Source of the DNA: Brenneria bubanii
Lineage (GTDB): Bacteria > Pseudomonadota > Gammaproteobacteria > Enterobacterales > Enterobacteriaceae
Direction: 5' to 3'
NCBI GenBank assembly: GCA_022378355.1
Contig: JAKMAJ010000010.1
Location: 105,719 to 169,718, forward strand
DNA length: 64,000 bases
The position numbers and the translations under genes were made by a program. Positions within the stretch are counted from its first letter, which is position 1. Every line of letters begins with the position of its first letter. Of this stretch, positions 29,076-62,178 are shown piece after piece. The notes below the pieces were generated by a model that saw only the letters and a list, made by a program, of their open reading frames with translations, did no database searches and was not told the DNA's origin.

Positions 29076-30428
29076 TCAACGCATGGTAACGAACTCTTCC
29101 GATGCCGTCGGGTGGATGGCCACCGTGTTGTCGAAATCCTTTTTGGTGGCGCCCATCTTCAGCGCCACCGCAAAGCCCTGCAGCATTTCGTCCATACCAA
29201 AGCCGATACCATGGATGCCGACAATCTTCTCTTCCTTGCCGACGCAGACCAGCTTCATACGACACGGCTGGCGATGCTGCGTCACGGCGGTGTACATGGC
29301 GGTGAAAGAAGAGGTATAAACCTTCACCTTATCCTCGCCATACTGTTCACGCGCCTGCGGTTCGGTCAGCCCAACGGTGCCGATGGGCGGATGGCTGAAC
29401 ACCACGGTGGGAATATTGCTGTAATCCAGATGTTCATCAGGTTTGTTATTGAACAGACGCTCTGACAAACGGCGGCCTGCGGCGACGGCGACCGGGGTCA
29501 ACTCCACCGCGCCGGTGTTGTCGCCCACGGCGTAAATGCCCGGCACATTGGTGTTTTGGAAGCGATCGACCCGGATATAGCCTTTGTCGTCCAGCGTCAC
29601 ATCGACGGCGCTCAGGTTCAGCTTATCCGTTGCCGGCTCGCGGCCGATGGCCCAGATCAGGCAATCAACGGTGTGTTCTTTGCCGTTTTCCAACTGCAGC
29701 GTCAGGCTGCCGTCGGCATTTTTCACCACCGCTTTAGGAATCGACTCGGTATGCAGCGTCGGCCCTTCGTTGTTCATCACCTCAACCAGCGTCTCGACAA
29801 TCAGCGGATCGAAGCTGCGCAGCGGCGACTGTTTGCGCACAAACAGGTGCGTTTGCGAACCCAGCGCGTTTACCACGCCGGCAATCTCGACGGCGATATA
29901 GCCGGCGCCGACGATAGCGGTGCGTTTCGGCAGCGCGTCCAGTTCAAAGAAGCCGTCGGAATCAATACCGAATTCGGCGCCGGGAACGTCAGGCCGTACC
30001 GGGCGGCCGCCGGTGGCGATCAGAATATGATCGGCGGTAATTTTTTCGCCGTTGACCTCCACCATGCGCGCATCGACAAAGCGGGCGAATCCGCGAATGA
30101 CATCCACCTTGTTTTTGCCCAGCACGTTATCGTAAGACTGGTGAATTCGGTCAATATAGGCGCTACGATTTTTAATCAGCGTCCCCCAGTCAAACCGGTT
30201 GACCGTGGTATCAAAACCGTAATCCGGACCATATTGGTGAATCGCTTCGGCGATCTGCGCCGCATGCCACATCACTTTTTTCGGCACGCAGCCAACGTTG
30301 ACACAGGTACCGCCCAGATATTTGGCTTCGATCAACGCACATTTCTTGCCGTACATGGCGGCACGGTTAATGGAGGCAATGCCGCCGCTGCCGCCGCCAA
30401 TGGCGAGATAGTCATAATGTTTAGTCAT
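29076..30428 (-). CDS. gor: Glutathione reductase
   Basis: Near-identity along its length to E. coli Gor ([27 protein letters not shown]…[13 protein letters not shown]…[12 protein letters not shown]). Confidence 0.95.
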
Positions 30429-30594: not shown

Positions 30595-31389
30595 TCAAAC
30601 GCCGGTCAGCACGGTCTCATACAGCAGCCGATCCAACGCGGCGTCGAGGCGTTCGTCCTTTGCCGGTGGTGAGATGGCTATCGCGGTTTCCAGCGACTGC
30701 GCGATAAACGCGTGGATATGCGGTTGCCGCGCCACCACATCGGCCTCTATCGCGCTGCATTTCATTTTCAGCAGCGCCCGAACCTCTGCCAGCAGGGCGG
30801 GATCCGTCACCATCGCGTTCAGCAACACCTCGAACTGCATAGGCGGCGCTCCCCTCCCTTCGGCAATCCACTGCATCGCCAGCAGCGAGCGCAGCACGTA
30901 AAAATACTTTTTCAGCCGCACGCGCTCATCCTGCAAATAGCTGCGAAAGTTTTTACGCGCGATGGAGAGGTAATGATGACTCGCCTTGAGCGCGGAAAAA
31001 CAGCCGGGGATCAACTGGCGCAGCCGGTCCGTCGCGATATCGTCCTGCCGGTAGACCACCGGTGAGTCCAGCCATTCGATAAGCGTGGGGTTGCCCCGGT
31101 TCAATAGCGCCAACGCTTTGCGCAATTCCCAGCCGCAGACGTCCAACGCCGCCGTCAGCGGACGTTCGATCACGTCAGGCTGCGGTTCAACCCGCAGATA
31201 CCACTGCGGCGGATGAACGTAGATGAATCGGACATCATAATCACTGTCCGGCGAGGCGAATCCCCAGCCGCGGCTGCCGGACTCGCAGGCGTACAGAATG
31301 CGGACATCGAACGCCTGTTCCACTTCGTCCAGCGCCGCGTTGATCTGCTGTTTCATTACTTCGCTGACGCCCTGAGATGCCTGTGTCAT
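30595..31389 (-). CDS. Pol-beta-superfamily nucleotidyltransferase with a C-terminal alpha-helical domain, function unknown; second gene of the putative RtcR-controlled sigma54 operon
   Basis: Minimal-NTase motif GS-x9-DxD (ESGSRGWGFASPDSDYDVRFIYV) and a third acidic residue in …ALDVCGWEL…, followed by about 150 aa of helical sequence. GGGAGGGAAAGGA Shine-Dalgarno. Lies 43 bp downstream of the SPFH gene on the same strand. Confidence 0.65.
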   Translation of the reverse strand: MTQASQGVSEVMKQQINAALDEVEQAFDVRILYACESGSRGWGFASPDSDYDVRFIYVHPPQWYLRVEPQPDVIERPLTAALDVCGWELRKALALLNRGNPTLIEWLDSPVVYRQDDIATDRLRQLIPGCFSALKASHHYLSIARKNFRSYLQDERVRLKKYFYVLRSLLAMQWIAEGRGAPPMQFEVLLNAMVTDPALLAEVRALLKMKCSAIEADVVARQPHIHAFIAQSLETAIAISPPAKDERLDAALDRLLYETVLTGV

Positions 31390-31432
31390 ATCCTTTCCCT
31401 CCCGTTCGGTGCGTCGCCGCTGCCTGCAGCAG

Positions 31433-32569
31433 TTACGCCCCCTTTAAATTCACTAATCCGTTCAACACCTGATCCAACCCGCCGAACACGGAAATTTTAT
31501 CGATGCGTTCCGCCACGCGCTCCAACGTTTCCAGCTCCTTCAAGCGCAGCGCGACCGGGTTGTTTTCCATCACTTTGGCGGTATTCAGCAGGGAACGCGT
31601 CGCCGACGTTTCTTCCCGACGTCGTATCACGTTGGCCTGCGCCGCCTTTTCCGCCTCCACCACCTGAGACAGGATGGTTTTCATATCGCCCGGCAGCACG
31701 ATATCCTTCACCCCCAGAGAAACCACGTCGATGCCGTAACCGGCTATTTTTTCACGAACCTGCGCGTTGACCCGTTCATCGATGAACTGCTTGTTTTCCA
31801 GCAGTTCATCCAGCGTGCGGGTTCCCACGGCTTCACGCAACGCGAACTGCAGCTCGCGGTACAACGAATCCACCGGTTTGGTTAACTGGCCGAAGGCCGT
31901 TAAAACGTCGTTATAGCGCCAGTTGGCCACCAGATTGAGCCGCAGGTTGACCTTATCGCGCGTCAAAATTTCCTGCCCGCTTACTTCCAGCGCCTGCTGA
32001 CGAGTGTCCACCATTTCCAGCTCTACGCTGTGGTTAAAACGCCAGTAGCCGCTGACGCCGGGCGGCAACAGCTCCCGCGCCGCGCCATCGACCTTCAAGA
32101 GGCCCAGATGCCATGCCGGCACCTGCGCCAGCAGGACGCCGGCATGTCCGATCACCTGTCGCTGACGCAGCTTCGGCTGCAGCAGTGCCGACACCAGCGC
32201 GTCCGGCACCCGGATGTCCTCGGTTTTCACCTGTTCGACGCGCTGATGTTCATCCTTACGCCAGTAAAGTCGACGCGTGGCGGGCGGCAGAATTTCCTGC
32301 AGCACATCATGATCGTAGCGAAGCCCGATCGTCTCTTCCGGCAATACCACATCCAGACAAAACTGCTTTACCCATTCCGGATGGTACTGGCGCAGGTAGT
32401 CGTCCAAAGGCGCCAGCACTTCAGAACCATCCAGAGACACGACTTCAATTTTTTGTCGATTAAACCAACGGGAAATACGGTGCCGACCCGCTTCCAATAC
32501 CTGCAGGTAGTCGCCGTCTTTGCTCACCAAACCCAGCTGACCTTTACGAATTGTTATGAACTTAAACAT
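31433..32569 (-). CDS. SPFH/band-7 (stomatin/slipin-like) domain protein with no TM segment, carrying a roughly 190-aa N-terminal domain of unknown function; first gene of the sigma54 operon divergent from rtcR
   Basis: The C-terminal half matches the stomatin SPFH core (…TRDKVNLRLNLVANWRY…GIDVVSLGVKDIVLPGDMKTILSQVVEAEKAAQANVIRRREETSATRSL…NPVALRLKELETLERVAERIDKISVF). Start placed at MFKFITIRKG (AGGAGA Shine-Dalgarno 9 nt upstream), not at the upstream in-frame Met at 32665. Confidence 0.75.
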   Translation of the reverse strand: MFKFITIRKGQLGLVSKDGDYLQVLEAGRHRISRWFNRQKIEVVSLDGSEVLAPLDDYLRQYHPEWVKQFCLDVVLPEETIGLRYDHDVLQEILPPATRRLYWRKDEHQRVEQVKTEDIRVPDALVSALLQPKLRQRQVIGHAGVLLAQVPAWHLGLLKVDGAARELLPPGVSGYWRFNHSVELEMVDTRQQALEVSGQEILTRDKVNLRLNLVANWRYNDVLTAFGQLTKPVDSLYRELQFALREAVGTRTLDELLENKQFIDERVNAQVREKIAGYGIDVVSLGVKDIVLPGDMKTILSQVVEAEKAAQANVIRRREETSATRSLLNTAKVMENNPVALRLKELETLERVAERIDKISVFGGLDQVLNGLVNLKGA

Positions 32570-32764
32570 TAATCTTTTTCTCCTGATGACCCCTCCGGCA
32601 CACGAGGAGACGAACGTCGGGGCGAAGCCGCAGGGGGAAAGCTCAGGGTTCCTGATGGAACGCATCAGCCTTCTGCCTGCCGCCCGGCGCGTCGGTCAGT
32701 CTCTCGTGAGGCAATCGTCAACTTCCCGGTTGCGGGAGGGTTATTTTTTCATTACCAATATCAA

Positions 32765-32791
32765 GGTGCGATGTTCGGGATTCGAACCCGA
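32765..32791 (-). other. tRNA 3'-fragment-like element (T-stem-loop plus acceptor 3' strand) within the 5' leader of the SPFH/NTase operon
   Basis: The minus strand reads TCGGG-TTCGAAT-CCCGA-ACATCGC-A-CCt. This is a perfect 5-bp T-stem with the canonical 7-nt TTCGAAT loop, a 7-nt acceptor 3' strand, a discriminator and CC. No matching 5' half (GCGATGT…) is found nearby, so it is not a complete tRNA gene. Confidence 0.5.
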
Positions 32792-32916
32792 ATTAACCGG
32801 TTATCAAGTGTTCGACGCCTGACGGAACATTCACAGGAAAGCGGCGACAGGCCGCTCCTGGAATGCCGGCGTGGTGCTGAATCACAGCAAAACCAACGCG
32901 TCGACGAGAGAGGTAA

Positions 32917-32932
32917 TGCGAAAGGCGTGCCA
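32917..32932 (-). promoter_or_regulatory. Sigma54 -24/-12 promoter, the putative RtcR target, driving the SPFH/NTase operon
   Basis: The minus strand reads TGGCACGccttTCGCA, one mismatch from TGGCACG-N4-TTGCA. It sits in the intergenic region shared with rtcR, about 335 nt upstream of the SPFH ATG. A candidate IHF-like site (tATCAgtgaaTTAt) and direct repeats lie just upstream. Confidence 0.6.
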
Positions 32933-32961
32933 GCAGCAAGAAAACCACGAATAAAAATTAT

Positions 32962-33000
32962 AATTCACTGATAATTAATATATTTTACTGAATTCACTTA
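32962..33000. repeat. Direct repeats AATTCACTGA / AATTCACTTA, 29 bp apart, in the rtcR/sigma54-operon intergenic region; candidate enhancer (UAS) for RtcR
   Basis: Two 10-mer copies sharing 9 of 10 bases at 32962-32971 and 32991-33000. The second copy is embedded in the palindrome TGAATTCA. Confidence 0.35.
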
Positions 33001-33069
33001 AAGCTATACTGTTCAGGCCCGCATGAATAAACTATCTTTAAAGATAAGAATTTATAAATTAGGATAAAC

Positions 33070-34653
33070 ATGAAACGCAGAGTGGTGATTGGCGCGCTGG
33101 GCACCGTCCTGGATAAACGCGGCAAACGGGCCAACCGCTGGAATAAATGGCGGCCGACGGTCGCACTATGCCAACAGCCGGAGATGCCGGTGAGCCGGCT
33201 TGAATTACTGTACCAATCGCGCCACATCGGTCTGGCGGAACAGGTTCGCGCGGACATCGCCGCGCTGTCGCCCGCAACCGAAGTACGTCTGCATGCCGTC
33301 GATTTGTTGGATGCCTGGGATTTTGAGGAGGTCTACACCGCGTTTCTCGACTTCGCCACCCGCTACACGTTCGACACCGAGAACGAAGAATATCTGGTAC
33401 ACATCACCACCGGCACCCACGTCGCGCAGATCTGTTGGTTTCTGCTGACGGAGGCGCGCTACCTGCCGGCCTGCCTGCTGCAAACCAGTCCGTCCCCCCG
33501 GCATGAAGACGCCCCGACTCCAGCCGGCGTCTATTCGATTATCGACCTGGACCTCAGCCGCTACGCGACGCTGACGAGCCGCTTTCAACAGGAGCAGCAG
33601 GCGTCGGCCTCGTTTTTGAAAGCCGGCATTGCGACGCGCAACACGGCGTACAATGCCTTGATTGACCAAATCGAGCGCGTCGCGCTGCGCTCCGCCGCGC
33701 CGTTGTTGCTCACCGGGCCGACCGGCGCGGGAAAATCCTTTCTGGCGCGGCGGATCTACGAATTAAAAGCCGCTCGCCATCAGGTTTCAGGCCGCTTCGT
33801 CGCCGTCAACTGCGCGACGCTGCGAGGAGACAATGCGATGTCGACGCTGTTCGGGCACGCCCGGGGCGCGTTTACCGGCGCGCAGCAGGCGCGAACCGGA
33901 CTGCTGAGGGAAGCGGACGGCGGCATTCTGTTCCTGGATGAAGTCGGCGAACTGGGTCTGGATGAACAGGCTATGTTGCTGAAAGCGATTGAAGAAAAAA
34001 CCTTTTTTCCCTTCGGCTCAGATAAGGAAGTCAGCAGCGATTTTCAACTGATCGCCGGTACGCATCGCGATATGCCGCGCTGGGTCGCGGCCGGCCATTT
34101 CCGTGACGATCTCTACGCGCGCATCAATATGTGGACCTTTCCCCTCCCCGGCTTGGCGGCGCGGCGTGAAGATATCGAGCCCAATATCGACTTTGAGCTA
34201 CAGCGTTTTGCCGAGACGCAGCTGCTGCAAGTCCGCTTTGACCGCGAAGCGCGCCAGCGATTCCTGGGATTCGCCTGCTCGCCGCAGGCGCCGTGGCACG
34301 GCAATTTCAGAGAATTAAGCGCCAGCGTCGTCAGAATGGCGACATTGGCCGATAATGGCCGCATTACCCTCGCGCTGGTCGACGAAGAGATTTGGCGCCT
34401 GCAGCGGCAGTGGGCGCCCGGCGACGCCGAGCAAGCGCCTCTACCGGAGCGCGTCGGCGACTGCGATCTGTTCGACCGCCTCCAGTTGGAAAGCGTGCTG
34501 AACCTGTGCCGTCAGGCCGGCAGCCTGTCGGAAGCGGGCCGCCGGCTATTCGCCGTCTCACGCCTGCAGAAAAAAAACCCGAACGACGCCGACCGGCTGC
34601 GCAAGTATCTGGCGCGGTTCGATCTCAGATGGGATGACGTCAAACACCATTAA
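33070..34653 (+). CDS. rtcR: Sigma54-dependent transcriptional activator RtcR (N-terminal CARF domain, AAA+ sigma54-interaction domain, C-terminal HTH)
   Basis: Colinear with E. coli RtcR over its full length, including MK…GALGTVLDKRGKRANRWNKWRPTVALCQQ…, the Walker A LLTGPTGAGKSFLARRI, the GAFTGA-type loop (GHARGAFTGAQQ) and the end DADRLRKYLARFDLRWDDVK. Confidence 0.9.
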   Translation: MKRRVVIGALGTVLDKRGKRANRWNKWRPTVALCQQPEMPVSRLELLYQSRHIGLAEQVRADIAALSPATEVRLHAVDLLDAWDFEEVYTAFLDFATRYTFDTENEEYLVHITTGTHVAQICWFLLTEARYLPACLLQTSPSPRHEDAPTPAGVYSIIDLDLSRYATLTSRFQQEQQASASFLKAGIATRNTAYNALIDQIERVALRSAAPLLLTGPTGAGKSFLARRIYELKAARHQVSGRFVAVNCATLRGDNAMSTLFGHARGAFTGAQQARTGLLREADGGILFLDEVGELGLDEQAMLLKAIEEKTFFPFGSDKEVSSDFQLIAGTHRDMPRWVAAGHFRDDLYARINMWTFPLPGLAARREDIEPNIDFELQRFAETQLLQVRFDREARQRFLGFACSPQAPWHGNFRELSASVVRMATLADNGRITLALVDEEIWRLQRQWAPGDAEQAPLPERVGDCDLFDRLQLESVLNLCRQAGSLSEAGRRLFAVSRLQKKNPNDADRLRKYLARFDLRWDDVKHH

Positions 34654-34672
34654 TTGATCGGAGCGTTTCACC

Positions 34673-35587
34673 ATGGAACTGATTTTTTTAGGCACCAGCG
34701 CGGGCATCCCGACGAAAGAACGCAACGTGACCAGCCTGGCGCTGAACCTGCATAACCCGCATCCCGCCTTTTGGCTGTTCGACTGCGGTGAAGGTACGCA
34801 GCATCAGATGCTGCACACGCGTTTAAGCGCCAGCAAGATCGAGAAAATCTTCATCACGCACCTCCATGGCGATCATCTGTTTGGCCTGCCCGGCCTGCTG
34901 TGCTCCCGCTCGATGGCCGGTTGTCAGGCGCCGCTGACGCTCTACGGTCCTGCCGGGCTGAAAACGTTTATCGATAACGCGCTGAGCCTGAGCGGCTCTT
35001 ATCTCACCTACCCCCTGGAGGTGATCGAAGTCACCTCCGGACCGGTTTGCGAAGACGAGCGCCGTGTGGTGACGGCCTATCCGATGTCGCACACGCTGAC
35101 CTGCGTCGGCTATCGCATCGAAGAGCGGCCTAAACCCGGCGCGCTGGACGTCGCGCGGCTAACGAACGAGAGCATTCGCCCCGGCCCCTGGTTTCAGCAA
35201 TTAAAACGCGGCGAATCCGTCACGCTGGAGGATGGGCGTACCCTAAACGGCGCCGACTACCTCGGACCGTCCACGCCGGGCCGATCGCTCGCGATATTCG
35301 GCGATACCCGCCCGTCGGAAGCGGGACGTATGCTGGCCGCCGGGGTGGATGTAATGGTGCACGAAGCGACGATGGAGGCCAATATGGCCGAGAGCGCCAA
35401 CGCGCGCGGCCATTCCACGACGGAACAGGCGGCGACGCTGGCTCGGGAAGCGGGGGCGGGACGTTTGATTATCACCCACGTCAGCGCGCGATATGGTCAG
35501 GAAGACAGCAAGCGGCTGCTGGCGGAGTGCCGGGCCATTTTCCCGGCCACGAACATGGCTACCGATCTGGCCACCTTCAGGGTGTAG
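34673..35587 (+). CDS. rbn: Ribonuclease BN / RNase Z (metallo-beta-lactamase tRNA 3'-processing endonuclease)
   Basis: Near-colinear with E. coli RNase BN (ElaC): [14 protein letters not shown]…NVT…[12 protein letters not shown]…[19 protein letters not shown]…[15 protein letters not shown]…LIITHVS. Lies 19 bp after the rtcR stop with its own GGAG Shine-Dalgarno. Confidence 0.9.
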
Positions 35588-35632: not shown

Positions 35633-36475
35633 TTACTCCGGCACAATCTGTTCAACGCTGATGTGCCCGGTGCCTGCCGGAACCAGCGCCTGATGCAGCC
35701 AGGGCAGCACGCTTTCCATCTGCGCTTTCAGCTTCCACGGCGGGTTGATCACCACCATGCCGGAAGCCGTCATGCCGTGCCGATCGCTGTCCGGCAATAC
35801 CGCCAGCTCGATCTGCAAAATATTACGGATGCCGGTAGCGTCCAAATCTTTCAGTAGCCGTTTGATTTGCTGGCGCAGCACGACCGGATACCACAGCGCA
35901 TAGACGCCTGTCGCGAAGCGGCGGTAACCTTCGTGAATCCCCTTCACCACCGCCTGGTAATCCGTTTTCAATTCATACGGCGGATCGATCAGCACAAAAC
36001 CGCGACGCGACAGCGGCGGCAGCTGCGACTTCAGCTGCTGGTAGCCGTCTTCGCGTAAGACTTTAGCGCGGGCATCTTTCTGAAATTCATTGCGCAACAG
36101 CGGAAAATCGCTCGGATGCAGCTCCGTCAGGTGTAATTTATCCTGCTCGCGCAACAGCTGACGGGCAATCAGCGGCGAACCGGGGTAATAGCGCAGTTGA
36201 GCGTTGTGATTATAGGTGCGAACCGCCTGCATATAAGGCTCAAGCTCGGCAGGGATATCATCGCGCTGCCAGATTTTAGCGATGCCGTCCAGATACTCGC
36301 CGGTGCGTTCCGCATGCTCGCCGCTCAATTGATAGCGCCCGGCTCCCGCATGGGTGTCCAGATACAGGAAGGGTTTTTCTTTTTCTTTCAGCGCGGTGAT
36401 GATCAGGCTCTGAACGGTGTGTTTCACCACATCGGCATGGTTGCCGGCGTGAAAACTATGGCGGTAACTTAGCAT
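35633..36475 (-). CDS. rlmJ: 23S rRNA (adenine2030-N6)-methyltransferase
   Basis: Near-identical to E. coli RlmJ/YhiR (MLSYRHSFHAGNHADV.KHTVQSLII…DPPYE…). Confidence 0.9.
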   Translation of the reverse strand: MLSYRHSFHAGNHADVVKHTVQSLIITALKEKEKPFLYLDTHAGAGRYQLSGEHAERTGEYLDGIAKIWQRDDIPAELEPYMQAVRTYNHNAQLRYYPGSPLIARQLLREQDKLHLTELHPSDFPLLRNEFQKDARAKVLREDGYQQLKSQLPPLSRRGFVLIDPPYELKTDYQAVVKGIHEGYRRFATGVYALWYPVVLRQQIKRLLKDLDATGIRNILQIELAVLPDSDRHGMTASGMVVINPPWKLKAQMESVLPWLHQALVPAGTGHISVEQIVPE

Positions 36476-36805: not shown

Positions 36806-37510
36806 ATGTTACCTGAAAATGAGCGTTGGTTACTGGCGCTTTCCGCACCGATGGTCGCGCTTAATATCCAGTGTGGCGCCAATTACCGCGACCATTCCTT
36901 TTACCCGCCCGGAATGGATGCTGAGATTGACCGCTCCTGGGGGATCGATAACCGCGAGGCGTTGATCGCCATGATCAACCGCATGACCGATAACGGTCAT
37001 GCTGAGCATCTGGCTTACCACTATTTTCTGTGGCATCACATTTCACTGGCCGACTGGCAGGATTACTGCGCTCATCAATCGGCGGAAGAACAGGCGGTGA
37101 TGACGCTGGTAGGCGAGACGGCGGCGCTGTGCGGCGAAGGCGGCATACGCGCCTGGGATTTGGGCAGGATGAGCTTTCTAAGCCGAGTCGGCCTGTTAAA
37201 CGGATGGTTGAACGAAACGGAAAGCCTGTGGATCCATACCCGGTTGGCCGACCGCGCCCGCTACTACTACCGCAGTTGGCAGAACTATTTCGCCGCCTTT
37301 TTCGTTGGACGCACCTTCTGGATGGCCTCGGATGAAGAGGATCCAACGCTACAACGTTATGCCCATAGCCATTACACCGAGATGCCCAGATACATCGAGC
37401 AATTCTGTTCGCTTTACACCCATCCCGACAGCCCGGTGCATAACCTCGAGTGGGATATGGATATCTTACAAATAGACAAACCTGAGTCGCTATCGGGAGC
37501 AGAAATATAA
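36806..37510 (+). CDS. DUF1266-family protein (YbeU/YbeR-like), partner of the J-protein/HscC module
   Basis: 234 aa with a YbeU-like sequence. Immediately upstream of, and overlapping, the J-domain gene. Confidence 0.6.
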   Translation: MLPENERWLLALSAPMVALNIQCGANYRDHSFYPPGMDAEIDRSWGIDNREALIAMINRMTDNGHAEHLAYHYFLWHHISLADWQDYCAHQSAEEQAVMTLVGETAALCGEGGIRAWDLGRMSFLSRVGLLNGWLNETESLWIHTRLADRARYYYRSWQNYFAAFFVGRTFWMASDEEDPTLQRYAHSHYTEMPRYIEQFCSLYTHPDSPVHNLEWDMDILQIDKPESLSGAEI

Positions 37511-40149
37511 TGGATACCCAGTGCTGGCAATTATTAGGCATTGAGCCAACGCAAGACCTGGACATTATTCGTCAGGCTTATCGGCAAAAAGTGCCGCAAT
37601 TTCACCCGGAAACCGACCCTGAAGGCTTCAAACGGCTGCGTCAGGCCTACGATACCGCCAGCAGGCTGGCGCAAACCCCGCCCGACGAAAATCGCGCGGA
37701 AGAGGCAGCGAAGCCCGCGGAAGAGGATAGCGAATTAACGCCGCTACAGACCGCCTTCGACCAGTTGCTGAGCAATCCGGCGCAGCGGTGCGACCCGCAA
37801 CATTGGCAACGTTATATTCACTTACTGAACCAGCACAGCGTAGACGTTATTGACCGTATTCGCTGGCCCCTGCTGCAACGTCTTTCTCAGGAACCCGGTC
37901 TCGCAAACCGCTGCGCGCAAATGCTGGCCGAGCGTATGCGTTGGCAACAGCGTCTGGACGAGCTGGCCGATGCCCCGAGGGAGGAAATCAGAGACTTTCT
38001 GGACTCGCTTGAACAAGACGACCTGTTCGATTTTTCACTCTTATCGCACCTGAGCCTGCCGGCGCAATTGCAAACGATTTTCTACTTTCAGCAAGCCAAT
38101 GGGCTGTTCTGGAACCGTCCGTGGTTTGCGCTGAAAGCCCATCTGTGCATCGCTACCACCATTTACTGGCCCGATACCCCAGACTTGATGCGACGGTTAG
38201 TCCGCTGGCACAGCCATGCGGAACAGCCCTGCGCGCAGTTGCGGGATTACTGTCTGCAACAGATGGCGGAAAAACCGGAAGATGATGACTGGCTGTATCT
38301 CGCCGCCCGCCACTGTTCGCTGTGCGATGATCAACAGCAGGCATTCGCGCTCTGGTTCAGACTTTATCAGCGTAACCGCCATCCTCAGGCCGAACAGTGG
38401 ATTCTAGACTGGTGCGCCGCTCATCAGGACGATCTGCTGCCTTTGCTGATTCAGTCACTCAATCATACGCCGGCGCCGGATCTGTCCGGGCTGCCGGTTG
38501 AGGCGCCGCAACAATCCTTTTTTATCTCGCAACACAATACGCAAATGATGGCGCGCTGGGGAATGGCGCTACGGCAGTCGCTTCTCCCGCAGGCGCAAGA
38601 TTTTATCCTGTGGCGACTGGGTAAACAGGACATATCGGTCATCTACCGCCACCTGTTGCAAAATCACGGCGGCAGCGCTCACCAGATGCTCTATTGGCAC
38701 GCCTGCATGCTGACGCTGGGCGATGAGCGCCTGTTGCAGGACATACTCGACCAGCCTCAACCGGAAGATCCGCTGCACGCGCTGATCCTTCAGGGGTTAC
38801 AAACGCAGGCGGCGCAACGTCTGTCATGGCTGGCCTCATCGGCGATTATTCAGGTTTTCACCCAATGGCTGGCGGACCCGGCATCGCCGCTGCCCGAGGC
38901 GTTCACTCAGGAAGACTCCGCGAGTTGGCATCAGGCTCAGGCCTGGCTGCGGCAATTTCGCGCCTTGCCGCCGGACAGCTTGCGGAAACTCTATGACGCC
39001 GGATTGCCGCAGCAGCGGATTGAACCGATAAAAGATTGTCTGGCCGATCTGTTGCCCGATATCACGCTTGATCTGTCCCTGAACGAAGACAATACCAGCG
39101 CCCGTGACGCGCTACGGCAAGCCATACTGCTGGCCGTGATGCTGGACGATCCGCTGGATGACCTGATCACCACCGCCCGGTCGACGCTGCCGCCGCCGAC
39201 GTCGGCGCACCCGGCTCATTCGCTCTTCGCGCTATTCGATGGGGCGGATGCCTGGCAGGAGGATACCGCCACGGCATTGAAACAGCGCTTGACGTTGAGC
39301 GACCCGCTGCATTACCGCCACTGGCTGAAGCTGCCGGTATCGATAGAAGAGTACGTCGATAATACGCAAAGCGTCAGCTTTTTAGCCGCCGACGAATTCT
39401 ACCGTCGTAATCGGCGTTGGCGAGTAACGCTGGCGCAATCTCCGGCTATTTACCAGTTGTTCTTCCATGCCTTTTACGCATTACTGAGCGCGGGGGAGCC
39501 GGCCGAGCGGCATCGTCATCACCTCGAACAGCTGGAGGTTAATACTGAACTCGAGGAGCAAATCAGACATGAGCTGCTTAACGGGCCGTCGGAAGCATTA
39601 CCGAAGCTGTTAACACAGCTTTCCAGCGATAAGCGGATCACCGAGACGGGCTGCATCATTAATGATTTAGCCAAAAAAGACAGTAATTTGCCCGATACCA
39701 GCGAAGGGGATTTTCTGCTCGAATACGTCAACTATCCGCATGAAAATATCACCCTGCGGCTGATAGCGAAAACCTTACTGCAACTGGCCGAGCAACGGGA
39801 AAGTCATTTCAGAACGACGGCTCCGGCCAAGGCAAGCCACGTATGGCAGTTCTGGCGCCTCAATAGCCGCATTAACCGCGTTGGCTACCTGCTTCAGGCG
39901 GGACTGGGCAGCATGATCATCCACTACGCAAGCCACGGCATCCCTGCGTCCATACCCTATCACCACCTCATACCGCTGTTGCTGATAGTAGCCAATGTCT
40001 TTATCGCCACGCGCCGACGATTTAATGATATGGGGCATAGCGCGCCGCAAAAAGGGGCGATCATCACCATGCTGTTGCCGATATTGCTGCTGTTGCCGTT
40101 AATCGGGCCGGGCTCAAAGGGCTGGAACAAATTCGGGCCGCCGCAATAA
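37510..40149 (+). CDS. Membrane-anchored J-domain co-chaperone (DjlB/DjlC-like) with a C-terminal DUF805-like TM region; unusually long at 879 aa
   Basis: N-terminal J-domain-like segment (WQLLGIEPTQDLDIIRQAYRQKVPQFHPETDPEGFKRLRQAYD) carrying HPE instead of HPD. The C-terminus has TM helices and an RRRFNDMGHS motif reminiscent of DUF805. Convergent with hscC. Confidence 0.65.
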   Translation: MDTQCWQLLGIEPTQDLDIIRQAYRQKVPQFHPETDPEGFKRLRQAYDTASRLAQTPPDENRAEEAAKPAEEDSELTPLQTAFDQLLSNPAQRCDPQHWQRYIHLLNQHSVDVIDRIRWPLLQRLSQEPGLANRCAQMLAERMRWQQRLDELADAPREEIRDFLDSLEQDDLFDFSLLSHLSLPAQLQTIFYFQQANGLFWNRPWFALKAHLCIATTIYWPDTPDLMRRLVRWHSHAEQPCAQLRDYCLQQMAEKPEDDDWLYLAARHCSLCDDQQQAFALWFRLYQRNRHPQAEQWILDWCAAHQDDLLPLLIQSLNHTPAPDLSGLPVEAPQQSFFISQHNTQMMARWGMALRQSLLPQAQDFILWRLGKQDISVIYRHLLQNHGGSAHQMLYWHACMLTLGDERLLQDILDQPQPEDPLHALILQGLQTQAAQRLSWLASSAIIQVFTQWLADPASPLPEAFTQEDSASWHQAQAWLRQFRALPPDSLRKLYDAGLPQQRIEPIKDCLADLLPDITLDLSLNEDNTSARDALRQAILLAVMLDDPLDDLITTARSTLPPPTSAHPAHSLFALFDGADAWQEDTATALKQRLTLSDPLHYRHWLKLPVSIEEYVDNTQSVSFLAADEFYRRNRRWRVTLAQSPAIYQLFFHAFYALLSAGEPAERHRHHLEQLEVNTELEEQIRHELLNGPSEALPKLLTQLSSDKRITETGCIINDLAKKDSNLPDTSEGDFLLEYVNYPHENITLRLIAKTLLQLAEQRESHFRTTAPAKASHVWQFWRLNSRINRVGYLLQAGLGSMIIHYASHGIPASIPYHHLIPLLLIVANVFIATRRRFNDMGHSAPQKGAIITMLLPILLLLPLIGPGSKGWNKFGPPQ

Positions 40150-40203
40150 CCGGCAAACCGTAAAACATCCGCAAGCGGTACAGCCATGTACCGCTTTACC
40201 GCA

Positions 40204-41895
40204 TCACCGCTGTACTTCATCCAGGCGCTGTTCAATACGCCGGCGCGTCTCTTCGATGGCCGGCGTGTTCTGCGCCGCTAGCGTCTGCTCGAACTCACGC
40301 AGCCAGTCGCCGATCAACGCCCGCTCATCCGAGCGGGATTGCGCCCAGGCCTTCTCCAGTCGGGCCAGCAGGTTACGGTTGACCAAATTGTCTCTGGGAT
40401 GAATTTTCAACGCCCTTAAGCGCTGACGGCTGGTCTCCCGCTGCTGCTGACTGAGTCCGTTAGGGCTGCGATCAATCACTTTGCTGAACGCGTCTCCGCT
40501 ATCGGGCAGGCTGACGTCCACTTCAAGCAATCCGTTGATGTCATAGCTAAAGCGAACATCAATAGACTGTTGATAATCCTGTGGTTTTATCGACATATCA
40601 AATTCATCAATAAAAACATTATTGGCGACGTAGGGGCTTTCCCCCTGATAGATGGCGATACAGATACTGTCCTGACCGGGTGAAGAGGTGCTGAAGGTCT
40701 CTATCCGAGACGTCGGCACTACCGTATTTCGCTCTAATATCGGCGAGAAAAGGCCGTTCCGCGTATCGTTTGCCGTTCTGATGCCGAGGGTATACGGGCA
40801 GACATCGGTCAGGATCACTTCCTCAATATCCTGTTCACGCAACCGACAGGCGGCCTGCGCCGCGGCGCCCTGGGCAACCACCGTGTCGGCATTCAGATGT
40901 TGATACGGCAGCTTGCCGAAGAGCCTGACGACCAGCTTCTGAATAACGGACATTTTCGACGCCCCGCCCACCAGCACCACGTGATCCAGCTGTTCGGGCT
41001 TCAAACGCGCATCATGCAACGCTTGTTCAATCGGCGCGCGTATTCGGTTCAGCAGCGGCAACCAGGCCGTCTCTATCGATTGCTCATCCGCCGCCATAGG
41101 CCAGTCTTGCTCTCGCCAGCGCCAAAGCATGGCGTTCGCGGCGGCAGGATACCCCGGCTGGCACTTCAGGGCTTCGGCATGACTGTACAGTCCCGCCAGA
41201 TCCTGCGCCGGAATATCTCGCTCATCCAGTTTCCACTGCTGCAAACAGGCTTTTACTATCGCCTGAGTAAAATCCTCGCCGCCGAGGTAATTGTCTCCCG
41301 CCGAGCTATGCACCTCAATCAGGGGAAACGCGTATTCCAGCACCGTAACGTCAAAGGTTCCGCCGCCCAGATCGAATACCAGAGTCCGCCCCAGATCCTG
41401 GGTGTGCAGACCGTAGGCCATCGAGGCGGCGGTCGGTTCGTTAATCAGCCGTACCGCATTCAGCTCAGCCAGTTCCGCCGCAAAACGCGTCTGCTTGCGC
41501 TGCTCATCGCTAAAATAAGCCGGAACGGAAATCACCACATCCTTGACGGCGCAGCCAAGAAAACTTTCGGCGTCCGCCTTGAGTGATTTTAATACCATGG
41601 CCGAAAGCTCGGTGGGGGAAAACGTCTGCTCGCCCAGCCGGAACGACTTTTGACTGCCCATATAGCGTTTGAACAGCGACGCCGACAGCTGGGGATGCGT
41701 CGTCAGGCGAGACACCGCAGGTTTGCCGACCAGAATGCTGCCGTCGTCGTCAATACTGATCGCTGACGGCGTGGCGTATTCCCCCAACGCGTTTGGGATC
41801 AGCTCGGCTTTCCCGTTCCGCCAGACGCAAATCAGGCTATTGGTGGTTCCCAGATCGATACCGATGGCCAGAGAGGCCTGCTGGGAATGAGTCAT
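40204..41895 (-). CDS. hscC: Hsp70-family chaperone HscC
   Basis: Colinear with E. coli HscC/YbeW (…LAIGIDLGTTNSLI.VW…GEY.TPS.IS.D…LVGKPAVSR…DVVISVPAYFSDEQRK.TR.AAELA.LNAVRLINEPTAA.MAYGLH…FDLGGGTFDVTVLEYA.P.IEVH.SAGDN.LGGEDFT…). Start at MTHSQQ with a GAGGAA Shine-Dalgarno. Confidence 0.85.
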   Translation of the reverse strand: MTHSQQASLAIGIDLGTTNSLICVWRNGKAELIPNALGEYATPSAISIDDDGSILVGKPAVSRLTTHPQLSASLFKRYMGSQKSFRLGEQTFSPTELSAMVLKSLKADAESFLGCAVKDVVISVPAYFSDEQRKQTRFAAELAELNAVRLINEPTAASMAYGLHTQDLGRTLVFDLGGGTFDVTVLEYAFPLIEVHSSAGDNYLGGEDFTQAIVKACLQQWKLDERDIPAQDLAGLYSHAEALKCQPGYPAAANAMLWRWREQDWPMAADEQSIETAWLPLLNRIRAPIEQALHDARLKPEQLDHVVLVGGASKMSVIQKLVVRLFGKLPYQHLNADTVVAQGAAAQAACRLREQDIEEVILTDVCPYTLGIRTANDTRNGLFSPILERNTVVPTSRIETFSTSSPGQDSICIAIYQGESPYVANNVFIDEFDMSIKPQDYQQSIDVRFSYDINGLLEVDVSLPDSGDAFSKVIDRSPNGLSQQQRETSRQRLRALKIHPRDNLVNRNLLARLEKAWAQSRSDERALIGDWLREFEQTLAAQNTPAIEETRRRIEQRLDEVQR

Positions 41896-42184
41896 GCTGT
41901 AGTTCCTCTCTTTTCTTCCATTAAACCGATACGCAGAAATAGGTCGACACCGGAGCAGCAACATTGAAGATTGCCCTGACCTCGTCTGGCGACAGGCCGG
42001 CATTATAAACCACCGAATCATGAAAGCGATCGTTGTGCTTATTTTTACTCGGTTATGGCCGTTTATGCGGGGTCGAATCGGGGGACAAGAACAGAAGTGA
42101 TAACGCGTGGCGGCGACGGGCGTCGGTGGCGCAAGACGCAGAAGGCGACAATATTCGCCGCCTTCTGCGGATCAGGTTAACGCG

Positions 42185-60378: not shown

Positions 60379-62178
<1,800 letters not shown>

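Follow-up and report, generated by a model that had tools for sequence, protein, structure and literature searches.

What does an RtcR regulator control at a locus that encodes neither an RNA ligase nor an RNA cyclase? This question is raised by a stretch of 64,000 nucleotides from Brenneria bubanii (hereafter the window), in which rtcR (33070-34653, plus strand) stands opposite a sigma54-type -24/-12 motif heading a two-gene minus-strand unit, SPFH-rlaP; the encoded proteins are identical to MCG8709586, 587 and 589 (Brenneria sp. 4F2 / B. bubanii). A preliminary description of this DNA, whose gene calls proved correct and whose features were all recovered at the same coordinates, had proposed an uncharacterised module with a possible anti-phage role. 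We consider it probable, if by no means certain, that the locus descends from the RtcR-controlled 'Band-7 / tRNA-like RNA / RtcB / RlaP' RNA-repair operon, has lost the ligase, and works by the mechanism proposed below. The description of a Band-7 protein without a transmembrane segment, encoded next to RtcB together with a tRNA-like RNA, goes back to Burroughs and Aravind (2016), in the part of their work quoted in bioRxiv 10.1101/312249; as far as that quotation goes, the combination of SPFH protein, RlaP and RtcR with a tRNA-like RNA was predicted then, and the module as such cannot be called uncharacterised. It is the ligase-less form that looks new. A search with PADLOC 2.0 matched RtcR only, leaving the SPFH protein, RlaP and Rbn without a match, and thus lends the anti-phage suggestion no support in the form of a known defence system.

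The regulator was rightly called an unmistakable RtcR homologue: with 828.9 bits it clears the cut-off of 650 set for the NCBIfam equivalog NF038308, it matches the Pfam families RtcR (E 5.7e-82) and Sigma54_activat (E 6.7e-49), and over its full length (residues 1-526) it shares 63% identity with E. coli RtcR, combining CARF, sigma54-interaction AAA+ and HTH parts in one activator. The motif TGGCACGCCTTTCGCA (32917-32932, minus strand) is the sole match of its type in the window; since 0.44 matches are expected by chance, it is not significant on its own. In about 45 related loci of Gamma- and Betaproteobacteria, however, the same motif precedes the SPFH start by 310-700 nt, at the corresponding place. 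The earlier claim of a divergent unit with a putative sigma54 promoter holds. A candidate RtcR enhancer site is the palindrome CTTATCTTTAAAGATAG (33032-33048, no strand assigned), some 110 bp upstream of the -24 element; its GATA/TATC blocks are invariant when the intergenic regions of the window, Citrobacter, Hafnia and Xenorhabdus are aligned. The CARF domain of RtcR binds 5' tRNA halves with cyclic phosphate ends, and induction in Salmonella needs RtcA (PMC7790460); in E. coli, both RtcA and RtcB are needed for RtcR activation and bind the CARF domain (PMC9650030). This dependence of the E. coli and Salmonella regulators counts against our preferred explanation, neither gene lying nearby here.

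The first gene of the divergent unit (31433-32569, minus strand) encodes a protein of 378 aa starting with MFKF, preceded by an AGGAG ribosome-binding site. Pfam Band_7 matches its C-terminal half (E 7.7e-29), while its N-terminus is not hydrophobic and carries no membrane anchor, in agreement with the TM-less SPFH/band-7 protein described before. The N-terminal part, which had been left unassigned, repeats the SPFH domain's first beta unit twice more, and the whole is a soluble stomatin-like protein with three homologous beta units, an SPFH core and a C-terminal helical region. The family comprises 547 cluster representatives at E<=1e-30, mostly of about 375 aa and aligned over their full length; it is not mainly phage-borne, since a scan of viral contigs yielded just 4 relatives. 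Homologues are encoded within or beside arrays of 28-36 tRNA genes in one MAG and one viral contig, and the same SPFH protein (PaFlo8) is located in the rtc locus of P. aeruginosa (PMC13086221). Membrane SPFH cages (stomatin, HflK/C, QmcA, prohibitin, flotillin) are among the closest known systems, as is the eukaryotic vault, whose major protein (MVP) is recognised by MVP-type N-terminal beta repeats followed by an SPFH-like shoulder and then a cap helix.

Between the promoter and the SPFH gene lies a conserved structured leader of about 340 nt (32570-32907, minus strand, the transcript start being placed from the promoter), which the preliminary description had overlooked. Its MFE z-score is -3.3, and RNAalifold predicts for 10 enterobacterial leaders 59 pairs, 36 of them with compensatory changes; 92.4% of the alignment cells are paired, compared with 38-48% when the partners are slid, and none of 500 shuffles equalled the observed score. 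The 5' domain (32818-32897, minus strand) is a predicted three-way junction of helices 1-3 (26 pairs, 18 changed on both sides), and the 3' domain (32601-32736, minus strand) a hairpin with a long-range helix (helices 5-7; 29 pairs, 17 changed on both sides). A model of the 3' domain detected Providencia, which was outside its training set, at the correct place with 40.7 bits, and gave no detection outside Enterobacterales. The spacers of other lineages measure 230-330 nt, and their global MAFFT alignment is uninformative. The leader matched no Rfam family, searches with Rfam (E<=1) and ARAGORN being null for the window, Citrobacter, Hafnia and Xenorhabdus leaders; this covariation-supported RNA has no entry in Rfam and appears to be annotated as a hypothetical ORF.

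Within the leader, a degenerate b7a-tRNA-like element (32767-32842, minus strand) matches, over the full model length, a covariance model built from 36 units of other lineages, weakly so with 20.5 bits (E ~7e-4), and includes a perfect canonical T-arm, UCGGG-UUCGAAU-CCCGA (32775-32791, minus strand). Neither ARAGORN nor the Rfam tRNA model RF00005 calls this element; the real tRNA-Pro of the window, serving as positive control, was found. The D-arm-like part of the b7a-tRNA-like element shares positions with helices 1 and 3, and covariation favours the helices. Both the weakness of the match and this partial conflict with covarying helices count against our preferred explanation. The reading that ACAUCGC-A-CC, after the T-arm, forms an acceptor strand ending in a CCA-like sequence was rejected, because compensatory changes preserve a hairpin at this place in Lonsdalea and Affinibrenneria. 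Tandem tRNA-like units precede nearly all genes for SPFH homologues, other lineages having one or two clear units, of which unit 2 is without an encoded CCA; many of the units carry stable tetraloops in place of anticodon loops and therefore do not decode.

The second gene of the unit (30595-31389, minus strand) had been described as a 264-aa Pol-beta-type nucleotidyltransferase, and the Pfam profile identifies it as RlaP (PF10127; 309.6 bits, E 2.3e-92, profile positions 1-248 of 249). It shows the catalytic GS...DSDYD motif, with ESGSRGWGFASPDSDYD read from the sequence as Pol-beta GS ... DxD, and is 51-55% identical to RlaP of Pseudomonas rtcB-rlaP-rtcA operons; a PDB sequence search gave no match. 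The family of this transferase has been studied biochemically (PMC12776372): as shown in 2025 for two Pseudomonas enzymes, PfRlaP and PaRlaP, RlaP adds 1-2 NMP to RNA 3'-OH ends with a preference for damaged RNA, and its products, which keep 3'-OH ends, were proposed to be prepared in this way for ligation (PMC12776372). The Brenneria protein resembles PfRlaP and PaRlaP in family, full-length match and its identity to the Pseudomonas operon proteins, whereas these two are encoded between rtcB and rtcA and the Brenneria gene directly follows that of the SPFH protein, with no ligase. The name RlaP itself derives from an association with RNA ligases. The proposed role ahead of ligation counts against a function that is free of ligase.

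No match to RtcB, RtcA or KptA was found within the 64 kb, even at E values up to 10, in tblastn searches whose queries were RtcB and RtcA of E. coli, RtcB of Citrobacter and KptA of Xenorhabdus, and the absence of rtcBA claimed earlier therefore stands for the window. The same holds for Ro/Rsr: a TROVE/Ro domain was not found among the 21 window ORFs of at least 400 aa (17 of them checked by Pfam, while the remaining four, katG, the SPFH gene, RtcR and a BcsC-like ORF, were identified or assessed by other means), and Rfam found no Y RNA in the window.

The closest relatives of the locus are the Band-7/b7a-tRNA operons of Citrobacter, Xenorhabdus, two Pseudomonas loci and the P. aeruginosa PaFlo8 locus, which share with it an orthologous RtcR, the sigma54 promoter, a tRNA-like leader, a TM-less SPFH protein and RlaP in like order and orientation. 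In Citrobacter, rtcR is divergent from SPFH-rtcB-rlaP, and the same arrangement is joined by KptA in Xenorhabdus. An adjoining RNA ligase (RtcB or ATP-grasp), by which such operons are recognised, is absent from the Brenneria locus, where neither the operon nor the rest of the 64 kb contains rtcB, rtcA or kptA, and where a single degenerate unit in a remodelled leader is what is left of the tRNA-like RNA. E. coli rtcR-rtcBA has divergent sigma54-dependent transcription in common with it besides the regulator, but possesses ligase and cyclase, lacks the SPFH protein, RlaP and a long structured leader, and requires RtcAB for activation (PMC9650030). Salmonella rsr-yrlBA-rtcBA, with Ro60 and Y RNAs bearing a tRNA-like domain, likewise places a ring or scaffold protein and a tRNA-mimicking non-coding RNA under RtcR, and Burroughs and Aravind, as quoted in bioRxiv 10.1101/312249, proposed the Ro/Y-RNA and the Band-7/tRNA-like types to be analogous. 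In Brenneria, however, SPFH takes the place of TROVE/Ro as the scaffold, a 5' leader that of the intergenic Y RNA, and there is no ligase.

The reduced arrangement, rtcR divergent from SPFH-rlaP, also occurs in Hafnia, Lonsdalea, Klebsiella oxytoca, Klebsiella sp. and Superficieibacter, so that this gene set is kept in at least four genera. Since the two genes accompany rtcR elsewhere too, the doubt expressed beforehand that the two might not co-occur falls away. Investigating 37 species-representative loci with rtcR next to an SPFH gene and sufficient downstream sequence, we found rtcB in 33; the four without it are all from Enterobacterales, and so are the loci of Hafnia and Lonsdalea quercina that likewise lack the ligase and were found separately from this count. 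RtcA is encoded at 19 non-enterobacterial loci. Neighbour-joining trees of SPFH, RtcR and RlaP, calculated without support values, agree with one another and nest the rtcB-containing Citrobacter in a clade devoid of rtcB, the outgroups again containing rtcB, which suggests several independent losses of rtcB in Enterobacterales. The dN/dS values of the module genes, 0.06-0.19 (rtcR 0.12 in comparison to Lonsdalea quercina, rlaP 0.19), are like that of the housekeeping gene rbn (0.17), and the remaining genes are thus maintained by purifying selection. In Affinibrenneria salicis, rtcR and rlaP are deleted from the same site, so that at least one relative can do without the module, which counts against our preferred explanation. 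Comparative analysis establishes RtcR, the conserved predicted sigma54 promoter, the leader with its degenerate tRNA-like element, the SPFH protein and RlaP as one putative unit; with rtcB lost and the rest kept by selection, it would therefore be a natural stripped-down version rather than a new system.

In the mechanism that we propose for this ligase-less derivative, RtcR would oligomerise and open the sigma54 promoter, and the transcript would yield the two proteins and the structured leader mimicking tRNA, which might be processed into a stable RNA. By analogy with other SPFH proteins, the SPFH protein may form a soluble ring or cage, which with the leader RNA would serve as a scaffold for damaged RNAs, whose 3'-OH ends RlaP would extend by 1-2 nucleotides. 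A ligase gene at another genomic site would then provide for the sealing of breaks, or sealing may lie outside the task of this variant, which would in that case only heal the ends of 3'-trimmed RNAs.

Other readings have to be weighed against this one. The preliminary description had drawn rbn (34673-35587, plus strand) into the module, with RNase Z and the transferase jointly remodelling tRNA 3' ends under RtcR. The adjacency stands, rbn beginning 19 nt past the rtcR stop, and in Xenorhabdus it follows rtcR by 1 nt in a different chromosomal neighbourhood; in addition, the missing CCA of tRNA-like unit 2 leaves the kind of 3' end that RNase Z processes. The membership does not stand: Rbn reaches 507.9 bits with the NCBIfam model for ribonuclease Z (NF000800, cut-off 398) and is an orthologue, of single-copy type, of E. 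coli RNase BN (61-63% identity, the identities tracking the species tree), rbn lies beside rlmJ in Dickeya and Erwinia where there are no rtc genes, it keeps its ancestral place in Affinibrenneria despite the deletion of rtcR, and it adjoins rtcR in only two lineages among about 45 rtcR-linked loci. It is a resident housekeeping gene at its ancestral site beside rlmJ and no component of the module, and we regard its involvement as very improbable. That the locus is a decaying, non-functional remnant of an Rtc operon after ligase loss, as the missing rtcB and the further losses in Affinibrenneria might imply, is scarcely credible and was already disfavoured, given that all reading frames are intact, that dN/dS is low throughout, that compensatory changes preserve the RNA helices, and that the reduced set persists in several genera.

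A possible, though rather unlikely, reading makes the locus the accessory half of a divided system, with RtcB and perhaps RtcA at another locus and ligation in trans as in the Citrobacter and Pseudomonas version; RtcR would then control two unlinked promoters, or the ligase would be expressed independently. The proposal that RlaP readies ends for a ligase (PMC12776372), the requirement of E. coli RtcR for RtcAB (PMC9650030) and the widely varying locations of Rtc genes among Enterobacterales speak for it, whereas RtcB and RtcA are found neither in the window nor within 8 kb in Hafnia, Klebsiella and Superficieibacter, and the sigma54 motif is single in the window. We think it improbable, too, that the SPFH protein forms a soluble vault-like cage which, with the tRNA-mimic leader, shields tRNAs from anticodon nucleases or soaks up these enzymes, with RlaP in a side role and ligation unneeded because damage is prevented or contained instead of repaired. 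The tetraloops that keep many tRNA-like units from decoding, the homologues at tRNA arrays, the repeated loss of rtcB while the rest is retained, and the nuclease-inhibitor role raised by Hughes et al. for the analogous tRNA-like domain of YrlA (PMC7790460) are consistent with it. In a wider and similarly doubtful form, the SPFH protein and leader would be a ligase-independent, vault-like RNP cage, induced through RtcR by broken tRNAs, which captures or shields tRNAs or acts as a nuclease decoy, while RlaP rebuilds trimmed 3' ends. If this were true, repeated rtcB loss and the SPFH genes in phage-like tRNA arrays would point to tRNA protection, a role undescribed for any SPFH protein.

Under the preferred reading of a ligase-less derivative, the significance of the locus lies in what it isolates. 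The SPFH protein, the tRNA-like RNA and RlaP were previously always seen beside a ligase, and a natural version without ligase and cyclase sets these three parts apart. It makes two questions testable, namely how the scaffold and its RNA act alone, and how RtcR may be activated without RtcA and RtcB, both of which the E. coli regulator requires.

The genes gor (29076-30428) and rlmJ (35633-36475), both on the minus strand, enclose four others, and what the preliminary description reported of these four and their promoter was borne out by Pfam, NCBIfam, motif search and tblastn. The minus strand carries the genes for a 264-aa RlaP nucleotidyltransferase (30595-31389; full-length match to Pfam PF10127, E 2.3e-92) and for an SPFH protein (31433-32569; Pfam Band_7 over its C-terminal half), the plus strand rtcR (33070-34653; 828.9 bits against an NCBIfam equivalog cut-off of 650) and rbn (34673-35587; above the NCBIfam ribonuclease Z cut-off). 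RtcR is colinear with E. coli RtcR, as had been stated, sharing 63% identity over its whole length. The proteins of the window match those of Brenneria sp. 4F2 / B. bubanii (MCG8709586, 587 and 589) without a difference. The sole match to a putative sigma54 promoter motif within the 64-kb window, TGGCACGCCTTTCGCA, is found at 32917-32932 on the minus strand. A candidate RtcR enhancer site is the palindrome CTTATCTTTAAAGATAG (33032-33048), which sits upstream of the -24 element, at a distance of about 110 bp, inside blocks invariant in four genera. At its longest (410 aa, from an ATG at 32665) the SPFH reading frame overlaps by 96 nt (32570-32665) the covariation-supported 3' domain of a leader RNA; SPFH homologues begin at the MFKF position, which makes 32569 the likely start and 378 aa the likely length.

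In its main features the module had been described before, and it is not the uncharacterised system that had been suggested. RlaP was named by Burroughs and Aravind after its linkage to RNA ligases, and their 2016 analysis is summarised in a 2018 preprint (bioRxiv 10.1101/312249). According to a 2025 preprint, the RlaPs of two Pseudomonas operons, whose genes lie between rtcB and rtcA, extend RNA 3'-OH ends by one or two NMPs and favour damaged RNA, and the enzyme was proposed to act ahead of a ligase (PMC12776372). In P. aeruginosa, the SPFH protein PaFlo8 is embedded in the rtc locus (2026 paper, PMC13086221). In PADLOC nothing points to a known defence system at the locus.

No RtcB ligase gene accompanies the module in the window: tblastn with RtcB, RtcA and KptA queries gave no match within the 64 kb, no TROVE domain was found in ORFs of at least 400 aa and no Y RNA by Rfam, in agreement with the absence of RtcB, RtcA and Ro/Rsr noted before. 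The sole ligase-like gene seen (60379-62169, minus strand) encodes a LigB-type NAD-dependent enzyme with adenylation and OB domains only, a DNA and not an RNA ligase. Activation of RtcR in E. coli depends on RtcAB (PMC9650030), whereas neither protein is encoded within the window.

A threshold of E<=1e-30 collects 547 cluster representatives into the large SPFH family, the majority with a length of about 375 aa and an alignment that begins at residue 1. Arrangements were derived from gene neighbourhoods and from a scan in which each species was represented by one genome, annotated by tblastn. With <> denoting divergent transcription, the order is rtcR<>SPFH-rtcB-rlaP in Citrobacter, rbn-rtcR<>SPFH-rtcB-rlaP-kptA in Xenorhabdus and rtcR<>SPFH-rtcB(-rlaP)(-rtcA) in Pseudomonas and many Betaproteobacteria. 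Only rtcR<>SPFH-rlaP is found in the window, Lonsdalea quercina, L. iberica, Hafnia, Klebsiella oxytoca, Klebsiella sp. and Superficieibacter, so the pair without rtcBA that the preliminary description proposed to look for does recur beside rtcR. Where rtcR neighbours the SPFH gene and the downstream sequence is sufficiently long (37 species loci), rtcB is present in 33, and all four lacking it belong to Enterobacterales. Parts, linkage, conservation and loss of rtcB are matters of observation. Neighbour-joining trees of SPFH, RtcR and RlaP, which are rough and carry no support values, agree with each other and nest rtcB-containing Citrobacter in an rtcB-less Klebsiella/Superficieibacter clade with rtcB-containing outgroups, which suggests three or four independent losses of rtcB. 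The retained genes are under purifying selection, judging from dN/dS against L. quercina (SPFH 0.07, RlaP 0.19, RtcR 0.12; 0.17 for the neighbouring housekeeping gene rbn).

At the same chromosomal site in Affinibrenneria salicis (locus L009:9334-11378) rtcR and rlaP have been cleanly deleted; what is kept between rbn and gor is the sigma54 promoter together with the structured leader and an SPFH gene that is intact and 84% identical. In the operon of Xenorhabdus miraniensis (locus L005:4933-16812) the SPFH protein has 524 aa, with additional repeats at its N-terminus, and is encoded together with RtcB, RlaP and KptA; an AAA_21 and RloB gene pair follows.

Regarding rbn, its proposed membership in the module did not stand. 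The protein shares 61-63% identity with E. coli RNase BN, and its identities track the species tree (Lonsdalea 89-92%, Affinibrenneria 75%, Dickeya 70%); rbn adjoins rlmJ in Dickeya poaceiphila and Erwinia tasmaniensis without rtc genes, so that rbn-rlmJ is the ancestral order, with the rtc module on the upstream side of rbn. An rtcR-adjacent rbn occurs in just one further lineage, Xenorhabdus, in another neighbourhood, a recurrence too thin to make it a module component; in X. miraniensis (L005) rbn follows rtcR after a 1-nt gap, the two set between two OTCase-fold genes. Beside rlmJ, at 36806-42021, the window carries genes for a DUF1266 protein, an 879-aa protein without Pfam match, whose N-terminus by eye resembles a J domain, and a convergent Hsp70-family gene; this trio is missing at the corresponding place in L. 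quercina.

The structured leader RNA, overlooked in the preliminary description, is well supported. It extends about 340 nt from the promoter to the SPFH start codon, is conserved from Lonsdalea to Xenorhabdus, folds better than shuffled sequences (z = -3.3) and matches no Rfam family. RNAalifold on ten enterobacterial leaders gave 59 pairs in seven helices, 36 of the pairs with compensatory changes; paired cells make up 92.4%, compared with 38-48% for slid partners, and none of 500 shuffles matched the observed covariation. A perfect T-arm (UCGGG-UUCGAAU-CCCGA) is located at 32775-32791. Between the records for SPFH and RtcR the accession MCG8709588 is skipped, which suggests annotation of a spurious ORF at this place.

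Outside Enterobacterales, nearly every SPFH homologue is preceded by one tRNA-like unit or by two in tandem, spaced by about 72 nt (in loci L014-L089, 260-400 nt upstream of each start and mostly as tandem pairs). ARAGORN often scores them as tRNAs with odd anticodons; many carry a GNRA or UUCG tetraloop where the anticodon loop would be, have an acceptor stem of 5 bp and lack CCA. The first unit in many Betaproteobacteria closes with ...ACCA, and the second starts immediately after it. A covariance model of this b7a-tRNA, the tRNA-like RNA of the Band-7 module (Burroughs and Aravind 2016, as quoted in bioRxiv 10.1101/312249), was built from 36 units and scored 20.5 bits (E about 7e-4) at 32767-32842, compared with 63.7 bits for a Gilliamella unit and 57.3 bits for the real tRNA-Pro of the window, so that a degenerate b7a-tRNA seems to persist within the remodelled leader structure. 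A second model, of the 3' domain (32601-32736), finds a Providencia copy outside its training set and none outside Enterobacterales. Providencia also has an extra tRNA-like element downstream of rtcB on the opposite strand (L018:11723-11799, minus; 21.7 bits with the b7a-tRNA model), for which ARAGORN left the anticodon call undetermined. Elsewhere, SPFH-family genes are found next to or within very large arrays of tRNA genes: 36 directly upstream of the SPFH gene in a 94-kb viral contig (L094:902-7098; IMG/VR UViG_3300007072_000340), and 28 flanking it in a gammaproteobacterial MAG chromosome (L076:4671-12017; OZ244928.1), with a distant RtcB-like gene nearby.

The SPFH protein gave an AlphaFold2 model with pLDDT 85, and residues 145-355 align with stomatin in the family profile. 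Its N-terminal 190 aa, previously left unassigned, hold no new domain. By hhalign (probability 98.4-98.6%), homologous repeats span residues 1-70, 71-141 and 142-215, and the third is the beginning of the SPFH domain itself. The first 144 residues folded alone (pLDDT 89.6) produced weak structural matches only, which leaves a vault-like architecture possible at most.

Following the literature, tRNA 5' halves with cyclic phosphate ends, which activate RtcR (PMC7790460), would switch on the regulator, and sigma54-dependent transcription would then yield the leader, the SPFH protein and RlaP. By analogy with its relatives the SPFH protein may oligomerise and form a scaffold with the RNA, and damaged 3' ends would be extended by RlaP, as in Pseudomonas (PMC12776372). 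The locus is a known kind of system, present here in a ligase-less, recurrent and selected variant that appears to be undescribed.
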